A stretch of DNA of 32,000 nucleotides from Arcobacter sp. (lineage in GTDB: Bacteria > Campylobacterota > Campylobacteria > Campylobacterales > Sulfurimonadaceae), in contig JAGXFN010000010.1 of assembly GCA_024637195.1 (NCBI GenBank), positions 136,847-168,846 on the forward strand, read 5' to 3'. The position numbers were made by a program, and so were the translations under genes. The notes under the pieces are model-generated. The model worked only from the letters and a program-made list of their open reading frames with translations. It was not told the origin of the DNA and did not search any database. This document shows positions 1 to 24,794 of the stretch, in pieces; within the stretch, counting starts at the first letter, position 1, and the number at the start of each line of letters is the position of its first letter.

Positions 1-1
1 C

Positions 2-514
2 CTGGCTGAGTTGGGTTTTCAAAAAGAGGATGTTGATATTGTCTTCTGTTCCCATTTGCATTTCGATCATGCGGGGGGTCTTTGTGAGATGTGCCATGCG
101 GAGGTGCATGTGCATAAAAAAGAGCTTGAAGCGGCAAAGGCCTTGGCGGATGAAGCCTACTTTTCTCAAGATTTTGCGTGTCCGATCAACTGGCGTATCT
201 ACGAGAAGGAGTATGACCTTGCTCCGGGCGTGCGAGCCATAGAGACGCCCGGACATACGGCGGGTCATATGTCGATGCTGATAGAACTGCCAAAGGGCAG
301 ACCGATCCTGCTTGCGGGAGATGCGGCCGACTTGAGCGAAAACCTTGAAAAGGAGATCGCGCCGGGGCTTTGCTGGCAGGACAACGAGGCCATGGCAATC
401 GAGAGTATCCGAAAACTCAAAAGACTCTCTGCCGAGACAGGGGCAGAGATCTGGCCCAATCATGACATGCGGTATTTTGAGTCTAAGAACTGTTTTCCGA
501 AGTTTATTTTCTAA
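2..514 (+). CDS. MBL-fold hydrolase, AiiA-like N-acyl-homoserine lactonase family (5' end cut by window edge)
   Basis: The reading frame stays open back to base 2, so the TTG at 11 is probably not the true start. It has the zinc motif HLHFDHAGG (HxHxDH) and TPGHTAGH. The C-terminal pattern LLAGDA...ENLE...SIRKLKRL...PNHD...FP matches my memory of Bacillus AiiA. Confidence 0.65.
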   Translation: MAELGFQKEDVDIVFCSHLHFDHAGGLCEMCHAEVHVHKKELEAAKALADEAYFSQDFACPINWRIYEKEYDLAPGVRAIETPGHTAGHMSMLIELPKGRPILLAGDAADLSENLEKEIAPGLCWQDNEAMAIESIRKLKRLSAETGAEIWPNHDMRYFESKNCFPKFIF

Positions 515-541: not shown

Positions 542-583
542 ACAAGACGGCTTGTGAAACATTTTTGCACCCGGGACGGCCCG
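542..583 (+). promoter_or_regulatory. Candidate guanidine-II (mini-ykkC-type) riboswitch: two tandem ACGG-tetraloop hairpins in the carboxylase leader
   Basis: Hairpin 1 is ACAAG-ACGG-CTTGT (542-555). Hairpin 2 is CGGG-ACGG-CCCG (572-583). A 16-nt linker separates them. Both loops are ACGR closed by a G-C pair. The element sits 25 nt upstream of the ATG at 609, with SD AAGGA at 597-601. It was folded by eye only; no covariance model was run. Confidence 0.45.
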
Positions 584-608: not shown

Positions 609-3600
609 ATGTTTAGCAAAATATTGATCGCCAACCGCGGGGAGATCGCCTGTCGTGTTATGCGTACGCTTAAAAAAATGGGCATTGCTTCAGTGGCTGT
701 CTACACCGCAGCCGACACCGATTCACGTCATGTCAGCATGGCTGACGAGGCCTACTATATCGGCCATGGCCTTGCAAGCGAAAGCTACCTTGATGCCCAG
801 AAGATCCTCTCTGTCGCCAAGGAGTGCGGTGCACAGGCGATCCATCCCGGCTACGGTTTTTTAAGTGAAAATGCGGCCTTTGCCGAGGCCTGCGAGCGTG
901 AGGGAATCGTCTTTATCGGACCGCGCACAGAGCACATGAAACAGTTCGGCCTCAAGCATACGGCTCGCGCTCTCGCCGAGAAGAACAGCGTGCCGCTGCT
1001 TCCGGGCTCTTCCATCCTGAACGACCTTGAAGAGGCGAAAGAGCAAGCCCTGCGTATTACCTATCCGGTGATGCTAAAAAGCACGGCGGGCGGCGGCGGT
1101 ATCGGGATGCAGCTGTGTTATGACGAAGAGGAGCTGTGCGAGGCTTATGTCTCGGTCAAGCGTCTTAGCGAAAACAACTTCTCCGACGGGGGTATGTTTT
1201 TAGAAAAGTATGTCGCCCTCGCGCGTCATATCGAAGTGCAGGTCTTTGGAGACGGTAAAGGCTTTGTCGCTACACTCGGTGACAGGGACTGTTCCGTTCA
1301 GCGTCGTAACCAAAAAGTGATCGAAGAGACTCCTGCTCCGGGCATAAGTGATGAGACTAGAGAAGCATTATACGCAGCAGCTGTCGCGCTCACATCATCT
1401 GTCTCTTACCTTTCTGCGGGAACGGTAGAGTTTGTCTATGACACGACGACAGACGCGTTTTATTTTCTTGAAGTAAATACACGTCTTCAGGTCGAACACG
1501 GCATCACAGAAGAGGTCACAGGTGTCGATCTTGTCGAGTGGATGATACGTCAGGCCTACGGAGAAAATCCGGCACTTTACGAGTATGTACATGCACCAAA
1601 AGGCCACTGCGTCGAGGTGCGTATCTATGCAGAAGATCCCTCTAAAAACTTTCAGCCGAGTTCGGGCGTACTTACGAATGTGAAGTTTGCCGAGGGTATC
1701 AGATGCGATACATTCATCGAGACGGGACTCACTGTTTCCGCATTTTATGATCCGATGATCGCAAAACTTATCATCAAAGCGGATGAGCGCAGTGAAGCGC
1801 TTGCAAAGATAGCCGATGCAGTCGACAACACCGAGATAGACGGGATAGAGACAAATCTTCGTTATCTGGGTGCGATCGTGAAATCAGAAGTGTTTAAAAA
1901 CGCACAGCAGACGACGAAGTATCTGAACAGTTTTGAGTTCAGTACAAGCAGCATAGATGTTCTTCGTCCGGGTACGCAGACAACGGTACAGGACTTTCCG
2001 GGACGTACCGGTTTTTGGGATATCGGCGTACCGCCTTCAGGGCCTTTTGATAACTTCAGTTTCCGCTATGCCAACCGTATCGTAGGCAATGATGAAGCAG
2101 CAGCAGGTCTGGAGATCGCTATTGCAGGACCGACATTGCGTTTTAATTCTGATACCGTTATTTCTCTGTGCGGTGCGAAGATCGATGCTTCTTTAGACGG
2201 TGAAGTGATACAGATGAATGAAGCCGTGAGTATCAAAGCAGGCAGTACACTCAAACTGAAAAAAGTGCACGCTCAAGGGTTTAGAACATACCTGGCAGTA
2301 CGCGGCGGTTTTGATGTGCCGCCTTATCTTGGAAGCCGTTCGACCTTTACCCTCGGACAGTTTGGCGGTCACGCGGGACGTACGCTTATCTCGGGCGATG
2401 TACTGCATATCGGTACACTCATAAAAGGTGAAGCGGTAGACAAGGCAGTGATCCCGCATCAGGATTTTGGAAATAAATGGCAGATAGGGGTACTTTACGG
2501 GCCTCACGGTGCTCCTGATTTTTTCACCGATAATGATATCAAGACATTTTTTGAGACGGAGTGGGAGATCCATTACAACTCAAACAGAACAGGTATCCGT
2601 CTGATAGGACCTAAGCCGCAGTGGGCAAGGACATCAGGTGGCGAGGCAGGACTTCACCCCTCAAATATCCATGACAACGCATACGCGATCGGTGCGGTGG
2701 ACTTTACCGGAGATATGCCGGTGATACTGGGCCCTGACGGTCCGAGTCTGGGCGGTTTTGTGTGTCCTGTGACGATCATCAATGCCGAACTCTGGAAGAT
2801 GGGTCAGCTTCGTGCAGGTGACAGAGTGAAGTTTGTCCCTGTTGAGCATGACACGGCAAAAGAGATGATCAAAGCACAAGATGATGCGATCGCAGAGCTA
2901 AAGAGCTATGATGAGACGGCTTTTCTTTCTTCTAAACCGATAGGTTCGCCTATCCTTTACAGGGATGAGGGGGAAAAAGATCTCCCATCCATTGTCATTC
3001 GCCAATCGGGTGACAGCAATCTTTTAGTCGAATACGGAGAGATGGAACTCGACATCAGTCTGCGCTTTCGTGTGCATGTACTTATGGAAGCATTGAAAGA
3101 GGCAAAAATCGAAGGTGTCACGGATATCACACCGGGTATCCGTTCTTTGCAGATCCATTTTGAACCAAGGGTATGCGACCGTGCGGCACTCATCCAAAGA
3201 TTAAAAGAGATAGAGTTGACACTTCCATCAGTCGATGACATCGAAGTCCCGGCGCGTATCGTGCATCTGCCGCTTTCATGGGATGATGAGTCAACCCGTA
3301 TAGCGATCGACAAATACATGAGAACCGTACGTCCGGACGCACCATGGTGTCCTAGTAACATCGAGTTTATCAGACGTATAAATGGCTTGGAGAGCATTGA
3401 AGAAGTCAAAAAGATCGTCTTTGGCGCGAACTATCTTGTCATGGGACTTGGTGACGTTTATCTCGGTGCTCCTGTGGCGACACCGCTTGATCCTCGTCAT
3501 CGTCTGGTAACGACAAAATACAATCCGGCACGCACATGGACACCGGAAAATGCCGTAGGTATCGGCGGAGCGTACATGTGTGTTTACGGCATGGAAGGTC

Positions 3601-4214
3601 CCGGCGGTTATCAGTTTGTCGGACGTACGGTGCAGATGTGGAACCGCTACCGTCAGACAAAAGATTTTATCCAAGACAAACCATGGCTTTTAAATTTCTT
3701 TGATCAGATCAAGTTCTATGAAGTCAGCTCAGATGAACTGCATCAGATGCGTGAAGATTTTCCAAGAGGGCGTTTCAATCTTAAGATCGAGGAGACGACC
3801 TTCAGTCTAAAAGCGTATAAAGAGTTTCTTGAGACAAACGAGGACTCGATCCAGACATTCAAAAAGACTCAGCAGGACGCTTTTGAAGAGGAGCGTCAGA
3901 TGTGGGAACGCACAGGTCTGGCCAACTTTACAACTGAAAGTGCGGATATACAAAAGCAAAATATGGAACGTATAGAGCTGGGCGAAAAGGGCGAGGCGGT
4001 CGAATCCCCCGTGCAGGGAACGCTCTGGAAAGTGCTGGCGAAGCCGGGCGATGTGGTAGAGGAGGGCGAGGTGCTTGCTATTGCCGAGTCGATGAAGATG
4101 GAGGTCGACATCGAAGCGCCTGAACATGGAAAGATCACCCATGTGCTCTGCCATGAAGGTGAAAACGTCCATGCCGGCAAGATGCTTTTTGTCATCGAAC
4201 CGACACAGAAGTAG
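609..4214 (+). CDS. uca: Urea carboxylase-type biotin-dependent carboxylase (urea or guanidine carboxylase)
   Basis: The ORF is 1201 aa. The N-terminus is a biotin carboxylase ATP-grasp ([21 protein letters not shown]). The middle is a KipA/KipI-like (allophanate hydrolase subunit 2/1-type) carboxyltransferase region. The C-terminus is a biotinyl domain with the AESMKME motif. An SD precedes the ATG. Confidence 0.9.
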
Positions 4215-4220
4215 GTCTTT

Positions 4221-5105
4221 ATGCGCAAACAACTTCCGGTCATTGTGCTAATGGGCGCGTCGGTGCTTTGGGGCCTCTCCTGGCTGCCGCTTAAGGGGAT
4301 AAACGCGATGGGAATAGAGGGAGTTACGCTGATATTTGCGGCCTACGCGATACTCTCGCTCGCGCTTACCCCCTGGCTGTTTCGCCAGATTCAGGTGTTG
4401 AAAACGCATAAAAAAGCGCTCTTTCTGATCGCTCTTCTGGGCGGCGGAGCCAGCCTCTCTTTTACCTATGCGCTGATCAACGGCGAGGTGATCCGCGTGA
4501 TGGTGCTTTTTTACCTGCTTCCTCTTTGGGGAGTGCTGGGCGGAAGGTTCTTCTTGAAAGAAGAGGTCGATCGCTGGCGCTGGCTCGGAGTCATTTTGGC
4601 GCTCTTGGGGGCTTTTTTGATTCTCGGCGGTTTTGAGGCACTTGGTGGAGCACCCTCGTGGATAGACCTGATCGCCTTGCTCTCAGGCCTTCTTTTTTCC
4701 CTGAACAACCTTGTTTTTCGTGCTGCGCAGGAGGTGAGTGTGACTTCAAAGATAGGGGTGATGTTCTACGGATGTTTCGCGCTCGCGGCGCTTTTGCTGG
4801 CCGGAGGTGTGGAAGAGTTTCCTCAAGACCTTTCAAGCAGCGCCTGGTCGGCACTGATACTCTACGCGCTGCTTTGGCTGCTTGTGGCCAATGCAGGCTC
4901 GCAGTGGAGCGTCACCCACATGGAAGCGGGGCGCTCCTCGATCATTATCATCTTGGAGCTGATAACGGCGGTGCTTTCAGCGACGCTGATCGCGGGAGAG
5001 AGTATGTCGGTGACGGAGTATGTTGGCGGCGCACTGATCGTGAGTGCCGCATTTATAGAAGCGCTGCGCACCAAAGATGAAAAGATACCAAACACAACAC
5101 TCTAA
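4221..5105 (+). CDS. EamA/DMT-family transporter
   Basis: The 294-aa protein is very hydrophobic, with about 10 predicted TM segments in a two-halves arrangement typical of EamA. It starts 7 nt after the carboxylase stop. Confidence 0.7.
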   Translation: MRKQLPVIVLMGASVLWGLSWLPLKGINAMGIEGVTLIFAAYAILSLALTPWLFRQIQVLKTHKKALFLIALLGGGASLSFTYALINGEVIRVMVLFYLLPLWGVLGGRFFLKEEVDRWRWLGVILALLGAFLILGGFEALGGAPSWIDLIALLSGLLFSLNNLVFRAAQEVSVTSKIGVMFYGCFALAALLLAGGVEEFPQDLSSSAWSALILYALLWLLVANAGSQWSVTHMEAGRSSIIIILELITAVLSATLIAGESMSVTEYVGGALIVSAAFIEALRTKDEKIPNTTL

Positions 5106-5115
5106 GGAAAAAAAC

Positions 5116-6450
5116 ATGACGATAACCCAACTTAAAAACAGCTACAGAAACAAAACACTTAGCCCTAGAACGCTGATGGAGCAGATCGCTGCGCGCATTG
5201 GCAAACACGCGGACAACCCGATCTGGATCTACCTGCTCAGCAGTGAAGAGCTAGAGCCCTATCTGGCCCGTCTTGAAGCTTCTGATCCGGCGGAACTTCC
5301 TCTGTACGGCATCCCTTTTGCGATCAAAGACAACATTGATCTGCAGGGTGTTCCGACGACAGCAGCCTGCCCCGACTACAGCTACACTCCCGAAGCATCC
5401 GCCTACGTGGTGCAGGTGCTGATCGAAGCAGGGGCCATTCCTATAGGAAAGACCAATCTTGACCAGTTCGCCACGGGCCTTGTCGGAACGCGCTCCCCCT
5501 ACGGCGCATGCAAAAACAGCATCAATCCCGACTATATCTCGGGCGGTTCAAGCTCGGGAAGCGCGGTGAGTGTGGCACTGGGAATGGCTGCCTTTTCTCT
5601 GGGAACGGACACAGCAGGCTCAGGAAGGGTCCCAGCCGCTTTTAACAATCTTGTCGGATTGAAACCCTCCAAAGGAGTATTGAGCACCTCAGGCGTCGTT
5701 CCTGCATGCAGAACGCTCGACTGTGTCTCTATCTTTGCACACAGCAGTGAAGATGTGCAGAGGGTATTTGACGTGGCGGCCTCTTTTGATGTGGAGGATC
5801 CCTATAGCAGGAAAATGCCGGCTCTGCACAAAAATGCACCCTCTTTCTTCAGCTTTGCCGTGCCCGCAAAAGAGCAGCTGAAATTCTTTGGAGACAAGGA
5901 GGCGGAAGCCCTTTATTATAAAGCGGTGGAAACCTTTGAACGGATGGGAGGGCGCGCGGTCGAGACCGACTTTACACCGCTTTTTGAAGCAGCAGATCTT
6001 CTGTATTTCGGACCGTGGGTGAGCGAACGCTATATCGCCGTTAAAGAGATGCTCGAAAACAAACCCGAAAGCTTTATCGACGTGACCCGGACCATCATTT
6101 CTTCGGGTAAATCAAAAAGCGCGGAAGAGTATTTTAATGCCGAGTACAAACTCAAAGCCTACAAACGTCAGTCTGAAAGAGTGATGCAGGGGGTGGATTT
6201 TGCGCTGACACCGACTACGGGAACGATCTACACTATCGATGAGGTCAATGCCGATCCGCTGCAGCTCAACACCAATCTGGGCTACTATACGAATTTTATG
6301 AACCTGCTTGACTTCTGCGCCTTCGCGGTTCCCGCAGGCTTCAGAGAAAACGGACTGCCTTTTGGCGTGACGCTCTTCGCCGAGGCTTTTGAAGAGAGCA
6401 AACTGCTGCAGCTTGGCGAGCGCTATGTGAAAATGGCTTCTAATGTCTGA
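5116..6450 (+). CDS. Allophanate hydrolase, amidase-signature domain only (C-terminal domain encoded separately)
   Basis: It carries the amidase signature GGSSSGSA and the GTDTAGSGRVPAA motif. I prefer the ATG at 5116 (MTITQLKN...) because it follows AAGGA; the upstream ATG at 5077 overlaps the transporter gene. The ORF ends where full-length homologues continue into a C-terminal domain. Confidence 0.85.
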   Translation: MTITQLKNSYRNKTLSPRTLMEQIAARIGKHADNPIWIYLLSSEELEPYLARLEASDPAELPLYGIPFAIKDNIDLQGVPTTAACPDYSYTPEASAYVVQVLIEAGAIPIGKTNLDQFATGLVGTRSPYGACKNSINPDYISGGSSSGSAVSVALGMAAFSLGTDTAGSGRVPAAFNNLVGLKPSKGVLSTSGVVPACRTLDCVSIFAHSSEDVQRVFDVAASFDVEDPYSRKMPALHKNAPSFFSFAVPAKEQLKFFGDKEAEALYYKAVETFERMGGRAVETDFTPLFEAADLLYFGPWVSERYIAVKEMLENKPESFIDVTRTIISSGKSKSAEEYFNAEYKLKAYKRQSERVMQGVDFALTPTTGTIYTIDEVNADPLQLNTNLGYYTNFMNLLDFCAFAVPAGFRENGLPFGVTLFAEAFEESKLLQLGERYVKMASNV

Positions 6451-6829
6451 AGTCATCGCGATTGCCGTCTGCGGGGCACACATGAGGGGCCTTCCTCTGA
6501 ACCACCAGCTCACCGAACTGGGTGCACGTTTTGAGAAGGAAAGCGCTACTGCCAAGGGCTACCGATTCTACAATGTTCCCGAAAAAATGCCTCCGCGTCC
6601 GGGCTTGCTTCGCGACAGTACAAGCGAGGATTCTATTTTACTCGAGGTATGGGTTATGCCGCTGGAAAACTTCGGTGCATTTATGATCCAGATCGCCTCG
6701 CCGCTGTGTATTGGAACTGTTTTTCTTGAAGACGGAAGCAGCGTTTACGGTTTCTTGTGCGAGAGCGAGGCACTGAAGGATGCCCAGGAGATCACAGCTT
6801 ACGGAGGATGGCGGGACTACCTGACATAG
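6443..6829 (+). CDS. Allophanate hydrolase C-terminal domain as a stand-alone 128-aa ORF
   Basis: AVCGAHMRGLPLNHQL...PPRPGLL...VYGFLCE...YGGWRDYL matches the remembered C-terminal domain of full-length allophanate hydrolases. Its ATG overlaps the previous stop by 8 nt, and the two ORFs are in adjacent reading frames. Confidence 0.7.
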   Translation: MSEVIAIAVCGAHMRGLPLNHQLTELGARFEKESATAKGYRFYNVPEKMPPRPGLLRDSTSEDSILLEVWVMPLENFGAFMIQIASPLCIGTVFLEDGSSVYGFLCESEALKDAQEITAYGGWRDYLT

Positions 6830-6963: not shown

Positions 6964-8193
6964 TTAAAACTCGTACCTGAATACCAAAAGCGCCAGGTCT
7001 ATCTTCCCTGTGTCTGTGCTTTGAACTTCTCTTGTGCCGTGGGAATACTCCAGACCGGCCAAGGCGTTTGCGAAAGGAGTCCAGAAGAGGTTGGCCTGAA
7101 GCGATGTGACGCTCTTGTTGGCTTTTTGCAGATCGCTGCGTATCTCATTGCTGTCTTCTGTTGCAGCGTAGGCGTAGGCGAGGGTGCTTCTTAGGGTCTG
7201 GCTCCAAAAGTGCCGGTATCCCAGATGCGCGCCGTAGCTTTTGCGAAGCCGGATCTTTCCGTCGTCATCTACAAAGCCCGCCGCAAAAGCATTGTAGGCC
7301 ATGTACCTTCCCATCCCCAGCCCGTACTGAAGATCAAAGCGGATGTCGTCTTGATTGTAGGTCTGTATCTTCGCGGAGAGATTCGCAGCGTAGCCAAAGG
7401 CGGAGTCTTTTGAACTGAGCTGAGTTGCGTCACTGAGCAGCGCCTTGTCTTGGGCTATGTGCCTAAAGAGCAGTGCAAAACTCGCTTCGCCCCAGGAAGG
7501 GTAGTACCTCACCCTCGTAACAAGGTCCGGCAGCAGGTCGTCCTGAGGTGTTATGATGCTTGCATTTTTGTCGATAAGGGTCGTCTCGGGCTGTTCAAAA
7601 GAGAAGTCGTAAGCCACCGAGCCCTTGTCTATAGTGTAACGCACAAGCGGCTGCCTGACGAAAACGTCGTTGATAACATAATCTATCGTATCCAGAGTGA
7701 CCAAAGAGTTGAAAGCGGAGTTGGTTTGGCCTACGGTAAAGCCGCCGAGCGTGACATAGGCATGGCGAAGGCGCGGATTGTGGGAGTTGGTGCTTTTTTC
7801 ATTTCCGCTGCTTCCCCAAAAATCCAGCTCTATCAGTGCTCTGGCCGGTCCATAGGCTGTCGGCGTTCTGCTCTTGATCCAAAACCTGCTGTCTCGCGCA
7901 CTCATCTTCAGCTGTGCGTTTTCGCCCTCAGAACTGAGCGGGATCTTCCCGGCGTAAAAACTCCCCTCCGGCCATCCCCAGATACTGCGCAGGTCTATCC
8001 TTCCGCCGACACTGATGATGCTCTGCTTGTCTGCGGATTCAAAACTCCCGTTCTCTTTTATCTGCTGTGCATCCACGCGTTTGGTGAGTTCTGCTAGCTT
8101 CTTCTCCAGCGCACGCAGCTCTTCATTCGCCCCAGAGAGACAAAAAAGAAGAGACAGCGCAAAAATGAGCCTAAAAAGCATTAGTGACACCAA
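6964..8193 (-). CDS. Outer-membrane porin with N-terminal coiled coil (DcaP-like architecture)
   Basis: It has a signal peptide (MLFRLIFALSLLFCLSGA) followed by a heptad-like segment (EELRALEKKLAELTKRVDAQQ). The rest is a Gly/Tyr/Asp-rich sequence of alternating beta-strand character ending in ...FRYEF (C-terminal Phe). The start may be the ATG at 8181 rather than 8193. Confidence 0.65.
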   Translation of the reverse strand: MVSLMLFRLIFALSLLFCLSGANEELRALEKKLAELTKRVDAQQIKENGSFESADKQSIISVGGRIDLRSIWGWPEGSFYAGKIPLSSEGENAQLKMSARDSRFWIKSRTPTAYGPARALIELDFWGSSGNEKSTNSHNPRLRHAYVTLGGFTVGQTNSAFNSLVTLDTIDYVINDVFVRQPLVRYTIDKGSVAYDFSFEQPETTLIDKNASIITPQDDLLPDLVTRVRYYPSWGEASFALLFRHIAQDKALLSDATQLSSKDSAFGYAANLSAKIQTYNQDDIRFDLQYGLGMGRYMAYNAFAAGFVDDDGKIRLRKSYGAHLGYRHFWSQTLRSTLAYAYAATEDSNEIRSDLQKANKSVTSLQANLFWTPFANALAGLEYSHGTREVQSTDTGKIDLALLVFRYEF

Positions 8194-8635
8194 AATTTGA
8201 GTGGCAGGAGAGACAGCTTCTTTTTAGCTTCTCTATAGCAAAGTCCAGCTTTTCTACCTCATAATTATTTGCGATCCTCTCTATCTCGTCAGCACTTTTG
8301 GAGAGGTTCTTTACATTGCGCGTATACACAAGCCGATCCTCTTGGCTCATCTCATCGCGCAAAGAGCCCTCCGCCATCTCGTTTAGTTTCAAGACCGTAA
8401 TTTTTAGGTCGTCTGACAAGCGCAAGGCCTTCCTGAGCCGCGCATCATCTTTTTCAAGCTCGCTTTTGTAGTTGTTTGCGACGGAGATGTTCAGCGTGCC
8501 CATAAGCAACTTCAGCTCTTTACTCTGAAACCGATGCACTTTTTTAGCAGAACTCTCCGCAGAAAGCTCACCCTGAAAAGAACAGGCGCTAAAGCCCGTC
8601 AGAAGCACAAAGAGAACAAGGGTTTTAAAAAGCAT
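8171..8635 (-). CDS. Cytochrome c'-like (class II c-type cytochrome) lipoprotein
   Basis: The 154-aa protein has a signal sequence with a lipobox-like FSAC. The body is predicted helical, with a single CLSCH (CxxCH) haem site about 10 residues from the C-terminus, as in class II cytochromes c. SD AAGGA precedes the ATG. Confidence 0.55.
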   Translation of the reverse strand: MLFKTLVLFVLLTGFSACSFQGELSAESSAKKVHRFQSKELKLLMGTLNISVANNYKSELEKDDARLRKALRLSDDLKITVLKLNEMAEGSLRDEMSQEDRLVYTRNVKNLSKSADEIERIANNYEVEKLDFAIEKLKRSCLSCHSNFGVTNAF

Positions 8636-24135: not shown

Positions 24136-24794
24136 CCTTTTAATTGAATCCCATTATCTTGATGTGTAGATTTTACTTTTGCTGGTATCCCTGCATACAT
24201 AGTATATTTTTTGGAATCATTTGGCATTAATGTTCCTGCCGCTATTAATGTTTCATCTTCTATGACTAATTTTTGTAATATGGTAGATGAAAACCCTATA
24301 AAACAATTATTTTTAACTTTAGTAAACCCACCTATAAGACTATTTGCAGCAATAAAGCAATCATTAAAAATCTCTGCATGATGACATATAATACTATTTG
24401 TATTAATTATATTATTATTACCAACTTTTGCAAAAGGTTCTAGTACGGCATTATGCAATATCGCATTGTTATCACCTATAATATTGCTCTCATCTACATT
24501 GGCTTTTGGGCTTATAAAGCTAACAAACTTATAACCTTTTGCTTTAACTTTTTCATACAATAATTTTCTTGCTCTCATGTTTTTATAACCTACAGCAACA
24601 AAAAATTGATAATTATCTATGTCGTATAATTCTTTTATATCTTCAAACGCTATTAATGGTTTATTTAAAAATGTTTTGGAGTTAATATATTCTTTATCTA
24701 CACAAAAAGCAACTACTTCATATTTGCTATAAACCGTAAAATAATAATGCATTAATTCTGCGAAATCACTATTACCATAAATAATAATCTTCAT
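24132..24794 (-). CDS. NeuD/PglD-family hexapeptide-repeat sugar acyltransferase (probable amino-sugar N-acetyltransferase, functional analogue of WecD)
   Basis: The 220-aa protein has an N-terminal Rossmann-like KIIIYGNSDFAE and a C-terminal left-handed beta-helix with hexapeptide periodicity (IGDNNAI, VGNNNII, IAANSLIGG, IGFSSTI). Confidence 0.75.
   Translation of the reverse strand: MKIIIYGNSDFAELMHYYFTVYSKYEVVAFCVDKEYINSKTFLNKPLIAFEDIKELYDIDNYQFFVAVGYKNMRARKLLYEKVKAKGYKFVSFISPKANVDESNIIGDNNAILHNAVLEPFAKVGNNNIINTNSIICHHAEIFNDCFIAANSLIGGFTKVKNNCFIGFSSTILQKLVIEDETLIAAGTLMPNDSKKYTMYAGIPAKVKSTHQDNGIQLKG

Follow-up and report, generated by a model that had tools for sequence, protein, structure and literature searches.

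The stretch of DNA analysed here (32,000 nucleotides, in the following called the window) carries, at positions 538-583 of the forward strand, what is with a probability of roughly 90% a genuine guanidine-II (mini-ykkC) aptamer, placed in a guanidine-assimilation operon directly 5' of a predicted guanidine carboxylase gene and presumably working by the translational ON mechanism of its family. The identification draws on two tandem hairpins, on their conservation and covariation in orthologous leaders, on a near-threshold match to the family model and on the gene context. Guanidine binding, kissing of the two loops and the translational ON polarity would follow from family membership. The same architecture had been proposed in a sequence-only reading of this DNA, and it was corroborated by a full-model match to RF01068, by covarying orthologous leaders and by a gene context known from the literature. 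Earlier publications already cover this class of riboswitch and its ligand, the link with the carboxylase and the layout with two riboswitches.

The leader comprises the 94 nt (515-608) between the stop codon of a lactonase-like gene (514) and the ATG of the carboxylase gene (609). Reading of the sequence confirmed the coordinates of the two ACGG hairpins that had been described in this leader, namely ACAAG-ACGG-CTTGT at 542-555 and CGGG-ACGG-CCCG at 572-583. The first of them, P1, had been given as a 5-bp, A/U-rich stem. The core and its A/U-rich composition were correct, but the true stem extends to 9 bp (UUUUACAAG/CUUGUGAAA, with one G-U pair) and the hairpin spans 538-559; 547-550 form the ACGG tetraloop, G546-C551 its closing pair and A545-U552 the pair below. 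Similarly, the linker of 16 nt is right for the 5-bp core, but amounts to 12 nt (CAUUUUUGCACC, 560-571) with the 9-bp stem. The second hairpin, P2 (572-583), consists of the 4-bp stem CGGG/CCCG and the ACGG tetraloop 576-579, so that the distance from tetraloop to tetraloop is 29 nt. Immediately 3' of P2 stands UAAAC (584-588), reading GUAAAC together with G583. The Shine-Dalgarno sequence (SD) AAGGA is located at 598-602, 14 nt past P2 and 6 nt before the ATG, and AAGGA or GAGGA is found at the matching offset in the leaders of the relatives. All of these features lie on the forward strand.

Two small hairpins might be a product of chance, or they might be generic structure (part of a repeat element, a protein-binding site, a terminator or the like). 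The fold of 515-620 is indeed not stabler than that of shuffled sequence (z = -0.59), and the window has the hexamer GACGGC about as often as expected (7 times versus 5.4). An unremarkable stability of the whole leader is expected for two small hairpins, and as GACGGC alone is not enriched, the signal consists of the hairpins and their tandem pairing. Hairpins of at least 4 bp closed as G-ACGR-C occur 3 times on both strands of the window, against 0.6 expected, and 300 shuffles of the window with preserved dinucleotides yielded no tandem pair, in line with the earlier claim that such a pair is not expected by chance. A lone ACGR hairpin at 24456-24467 on the reverse strand was also considered and was rejected as chance level. 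Against a generic structure speak further the lack of a U-tract after either hairpin and the specific match to one Rfam family, and against both versions speaks the covarying conservation in orthologous leaders. For practical purposes, these comparative data already refute an origin by chance or as generic structure, to which we assign a negligible probability.

In the family comparison, the whole length of RF01068 (Guanidine-II) is matched by 539-583, with 29.4 bits. The E-value is 1.5e-4 in a search of 161 nt (480-640) and 0.0067 in a 7-kb search. A default Rfam scan of the whole window reported no match, and the match is displayed only with an E-value threshold on the short stretch 480-640. 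The cmsearch that had been suggested as a check thus gave a divided answer: the full model matches, but the score falls 2.6 bits under the gathering score of 32 bits, while four orthologous elements pass. What lowers the score is the composition of P1, rich in A/U and with A-U as second closing pair, together with a P2 of 4 bp. At the residue level, 14 of 16 family-conserved nucleotides are matched (7 of the 8 pairs and loop positions). Both loops of the window are ACGG, and all 11 relatives have ACGA or ACGG. The second closing pair conforms to the consensus in P2 (GG/CC), whereas P1 has G-C and then A-U in place of the consensus G-C. The linker of 12 nt (16 nt with the 5-bp core) is inside the range of 7-40 nt given for guanidine-II RNAs (PMC5558903). 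Altogether, the bit score is the only point at which the element falls outside the family definition, and orthologous copies score above the same cut-off.

To compare leaders, loci encoding relatives of the carboxylase were collected from genomes and metagenomes (L001-L161). The nearest of these relatives, with 74-85% identity, belong to Campylobacterota (Sulfurovum, Sulfurimonas, Sulfurimonadaceae and Campylobacterales MAGs). Both hairpins were found at the equivalent place in 11 related Campylobacterota leaders. In the alignment of these leaders with the window (12 sequences), GACGRC and GGGACGRCCC are invariant, and compensatory changes are seen in 10 of the 16 stem pairs (8 of 11 in P1). 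Paired cells make up 87.5% of the alignment, compared with 31-56% when the 3' partners are slid, and the observed covariation score was reached by none of 500 shuffles. Stem variants in the clade include ACAAG/CUUGU, AUAAG/CUUAU, AUAGG/CCUAU and UUAGG/CCUUAA for P1, and CGGG/CCCG, UGGG/CCCA and UUGGG/CCCAA for P2. The three loop-proximal G-C pairs of P2 are invariant in 12 of 12 sequences; its outer pair covaries, being C-G in 7, U-A in 3 and U-G in 1. The RNAalifold consensus of nine clade members, calculated from P1 to +20, contains exactly P1 and P2. Covariation in both stems together with invariant ACGR loops, as the sequence-only reading had anticipated for orthologous leaders, was therefore observed, with ACGA or ACGG loops throughout.

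The same leaders put the near-threshold score of the window into perspective. Among the orthologous elements, L084 (40.3 bits), L003 (35.6), L085 (33.1) and L088 (32.5) pass the RF01068 cut-off, and others with 31.5, 29.5, 28.8, 28.5 and 26.5 bits do not. The cut-off splits one orthologous series, which is a limit of model sensitivity and not a structural failure of the element. As the threshold misses about half of this A/U-rich series in low-GC Campylobacterota, guanidine-responsive regulation is under-counted in the phylum. Guanidine-II matches above the gathering score were also detected 20-35 nt before the ATG of the orthologous carboxylase gene in species of Variovorax, Vibrio, Uliginosibacterium and Gallionella.

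One could still regard the element as a guanidine-II relic, decaying or without function, with regulation left to an upstream guanidine-I riboswitch alone. The A/U-rich P1, the 4-bp P2 and the score under the gathering cut-off would fit such a relic, and so would two of the related loci: the leader of L068 is without the element, and P1 is visibly disrupted in the metagenomic L083. In the latter (L083 298-346), P1 is reduced to two loop-adjacent G-C pairs and a distal 4-bp stem, P2 is intact, and the element may be a decaying copy. In the window, by contrast, the family-conserved loop and closing positions are intact except for the A-U pair of P1. Compensatory stem substitutions across the clade point to ongoing selection for pairing, and the spacing from loop to loop is kept at 27-29 nt in the clade. 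A relic is thus very improbable, and we keep to an intact aptamer.

In a broader sample, a simple structural scan found tandem ACGR hairpins in front of 85 of 156 orthologous carboxylase genes. Among these 85 elements, the P1 stem measures 3-13 bp (window 9 bp), the P2 stem 3-8 bp (window 4 bp), the linker 5-24 nt (window 12 nt) and the distance from the end of P2 to the ATG 10-45 nt (window 25 nt). Twelve of the 85 have a P2 of 3-4 bp. An A-U pair second from the loop is present in 12 of 85 P1 and 19 of 85 P2 hairpins, including the best-scoring L042 (44.1 bits); it is within natural variation. The caveats that had been attached to the hairpins at the outset, i.e. the A/U-rich P1, the 4-bp P2 and the SD 14 nt past P2, are consequently harmless, all of them being inside the range of the 85 elements. 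In 77 of the 85, the loop-to-loop spacing is 27-32 nt despite widely varying P1 and linker lengths. Stem and linker lengths seem to offset each other, presumably on account of the kissing geometry.

The source contig L081 shares 9524 nt of identical sequence with the window (window position 1 corresponds to L081 9393) and gave access to the region upstream. A Guanidine-I riboswitch (RF00442) is located at L081 4932-5033, about 4.4 kb upstream of the window, with 89.9 bits against a gathering score of 63. From there, the order on L081 is Guanidine-I, an NMT1-type ABC importer, two DUF1989 genes, the lactonase gene, the guanidine-II element, the carboxylase gene, an EamA gene and allophanate hydrolase. 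The two DUF1989 proteins are the carboxyguanidine deiminase subunits CgdA/B. A class I riboswitch at the head of the operon and a class II riboswitch directly before the carboxylase is a published layout (PMC5558903, PMC12186494, PMC12508155).

The last gene before the riboswitch encodes a lactonase-like protein with metallo-beta-lactamase fold; its 3' part occupies 1-514 (+) of the window, and the full-length product has 260 aa (L081 9124-9906). A lactonase-like gene separates cgdB from the riboswitch in the window, L001, L002 and L082; L003, L004, L061 and L083-L088 are without it. Other additional operon genes are a xylose-isomerase-like TIM-barrel gene in L001 and L002 and a gene for a membrane protein of the fatty-acid-desaturase family in L001 (L001 1107-2114, 6613-7467). 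MgdH/MgdL are known to feed methylguanidine into the pathway (PMC12508155). Like them, the lactonase and the desaturase-like and TIM-barrel proteins of the relatives might act on a substituted guanidine or a similar compound. That these proteins and EamA feed a further guanidino compound into the pathway is conceivable, but improbable.

The gene following the element (609-4214, +) encodes a biotin-dependent carboxylase of 1201 aa, labelled urea carboxylase by homology (TIGR02712, 1926 bits). According to published work, guanidine carboxylases are distinguished from urea carboxylases by an Asp at Kluyveromyces lactis position 1330, which is Asn in urea carboxylases, and by an Asp at 1584 (PMC11410670). 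In an alignment to the K. lactis urea carboxylase/amidolyase (3va7/5i8i; position 1330 is 3va7 index 737, the offset of 593 being taken from 5i8i), D698 of the window's enzyme aligns with N1330 and D949 with D1584. Thus, the product is predicted to be a guanidine carboxylase, the urea carboxylase label notwithstanding. The earlier view of an element preceding a urea-carboxylase-type gene agrees with the published guanidine-II context, but has to be revised with regard to the enzyme, for which D698 and D949 predict guanidine and not urea as the substrate.

Next in the operon is a gene for an EamA-family (drug/metabolite transporter) membrane protein of 294 aa (4221-5105, +; PF00892). Its position between the carboxylase and allophanate hydrolase is kept across the clade (L001-L004, L061). 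Transporters commonly named for guanidine operons are of the ABC, APC and Gdx types, which do not include EamA proteins, members of the DMT superfamily. Allophanate hydrolase is encoded by two separate ORFs. The amidase part (NF006043/TIGR02713, PF01425) has 444 aa at 5116-6450 (+) with the start used in L081; the longest ORF begins at 5077, so that the length is 444-457 aa depending on the start. The C-terminal domain (PF21986 AH_C, 128 aa, 6443-6829, +) overlaps the preceding ORF by 8 nt. L003, L004 and L061 have allophanate hydrolase divided in the same way, indicating a conserved clade feature and not a frameshift or an assembly error. Converging on the end of the operon are a gene for a DcaP/porin-like outer-membrane protein (6964-8193, -) and a small ORF that weakly matches cytochrome c' (8171-8635, -).

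The window and its contig therefore contain a complete guanidine-assimilation operon, with class I and class II riboswitches, in a relative of the sulfur-oxidising Sulfurovum/Sulfurimonas. The guanidine carboxylase pathway thereby gains in ecological range, although the significance beyond annotation is small.

As for the mechanism, homology with the characterised family suggests that two guanidinium ions would bind the ACGG loops of P1 and P2 and would stabilise the loop-loop (kissing) contact between the two hairpins. Kissing would then make the ribosome-binding site (SD 598-602, AUG 609) accessible. In the presence of guanidine, the carboxylase and probably also the EamA and allophanate hydrolase genes would be translated, while the guanidine-I riboswitch 4.4 kb upstream of the window, which heads the operon at the 5' end, would switch on the operon as a whole. 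Guanidine-II RNAs have been described as translational ON switches (PMC5558903, PMC12186494).

The sequence-only reading had noted neither a terminator nor an obvious helix sequestering the SD, and on both counts our calculations agree. No terminator was found on the forward strand in 300-800. In several relatives, a weak hairpin with UUUU after it can be made out by eye immediately before P1, but it did not qualify as a terminator. The RNAalifold consensus of nine clade members contained no conserved helix masking the SD or the AUG. Duplexes between the linker and the region from the end of P2 to +25 (RNAduplex) were compared with those of shuffled linkers, giving p = 0.07-0.9 per sequence; no single value is significant, and the sequences are not independent of each other. 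In addition, the energy for opening -14 to +5 was compared between the free RNA and a mimic of the bound state, in which P1 and P2 were forced and the loops and linker kept unpaired. The two states differed by 0.1 kcal/mol for the window and by 0.1-0.8 kcal/mol for most members above the cut-off; L040 and L045 gave aberrant opening energies, probably because the region overlaps P2. Since above-cut-off members are equally unresponsive, we regard this as a limit of the modelling and not as evidence against the window element.

A genuine aptamer might also act in another way than by simple unmasking of the SD, namely on mRNA stability, on Rho-dependent termination inside the long polycistronic mRNA or on translational coupling between the lactonase and carboxylase genes. 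The calculations above, in which a conserved SD-sequestering helix did not emerge, would leave room for such an output. The same holds for the location of the element inside the operon, with no sigma-70-like promoter detected in 300-800, and for the possible link between translational and mRNA-level control in riboswitches (PMC12508155). In favour of the translational switch, on the other hand, are the ON mechanism described for the family, the distance of 14-25 nt from P2 to SD and AUG, which is within the range of other members, and the lack of a terminator-like hairpin on the forward strand. On balance, we find an output of this other kind unlikely and prefer the translational ON switch.

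Some complementarities around the start codon deserve mention. In 6 of 9 close relatives, P2 is directly followed by the motif GUAAAC, which is also present in several linkers and is complementary to the auGUUUAC with which the coding sequence begins. In the window, UAAAC can pair with GUUUA at 611-615, a stretch that runs from the last nucleotide of the AUG through codon 2 into codon 3. A helix between GUAAAC and the start is part of the minimum-energy folds of L082, L088, L061 and L083, but it shows no covariation and is absent from the RNAalifold consensus. GUAAAC after P2 is possibly an anti-start element, which we put forward as a hypothesis. Two further pairings are specific to the window, whose linker is 2 nt longer than those of all relatives and differs from them. 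In the minimum-energy folds, linker UUUUGC (563-568) can pair with GCAAAA (616-621) in codons 3-5. In both minimum-energy and centroid folds, linker UGCAC (565-569) can pair with GUGCA (533-537), 5' of P1; this would extend P1 and leave a linker of 2 nt, and should be incompatible with kissing of P1 and P2. Neither pairing is supported by covariation, and with such an A/U-rich composition chance complementarity is likely for pairings of the linker or the start. A Sulfurovum/Sulfurimonas-type subclade could in principle have a platform of its own, in which the OFF state masks the start codon and not the SD, and kissing releases it by stretching the short linker. We consider such a platform improbable.

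In comparison with known riboswitches, the element shares its ligand and its gene set with guanidine-I RNAs (ykkC, RF00442), and guanidine-I takes the place of guanidine-II upstream of the Acinetobacter orthologue (L047). The window element itself is not a guanidine-I RNA. Guanidine-I has an unrelated fold of about 100 nt and is usually transcriptional.

The closest parallels are carboxylase-associated guanidine-II RNAs such as those of Vreelandella boliviensis, Raoultella terrigena and Klebsiella michiganensis. They are alike in the tandem ACGR hairpins with G-C closing pairs (the linker being 12 nt in the window), in the place immediately 5' of the guanidine carboxylase start within an operon headed by guanidine-I, and in the operon content, with ABC importer, cgdAB and allophanate hydrolase. 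In the case of the window, however, the host is a low-GC member of the Campylobacterota (window GC 38.8%). The A/U-rich P1 is of considerable length, measuring 9-11 bp in the clade, and has A-U as its second closing pair; P2 has only 4 bp, and the SD is 14 nt past P2 instead of abutting it. The score stays 2.6 bits under the cut-off, and a lactonase-like gene stands between cgdB and the riboswitch.

The structurally characterised guanidine-II RNAs of gdx/sugE genes (Escherichia coli, Pseudomonas aeruginosa and Gloeobacter violaceus) have the same aptamer architecture and loop sequences as the window element, and the ligand site in the kissing loops and the translational ON logic are presumed to be the same. 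For P. aeruginosa, the linker together with the 5' strand of P1 has been named as anti-SD (PMC5558903), whereas no equivalent pairing is evident in the window. They also differ in function: the gdx/sugE riboswitches control a guanidine exporter and thereby detoxification, whereas the element described here would control an enzyme of guanidine assimilation.
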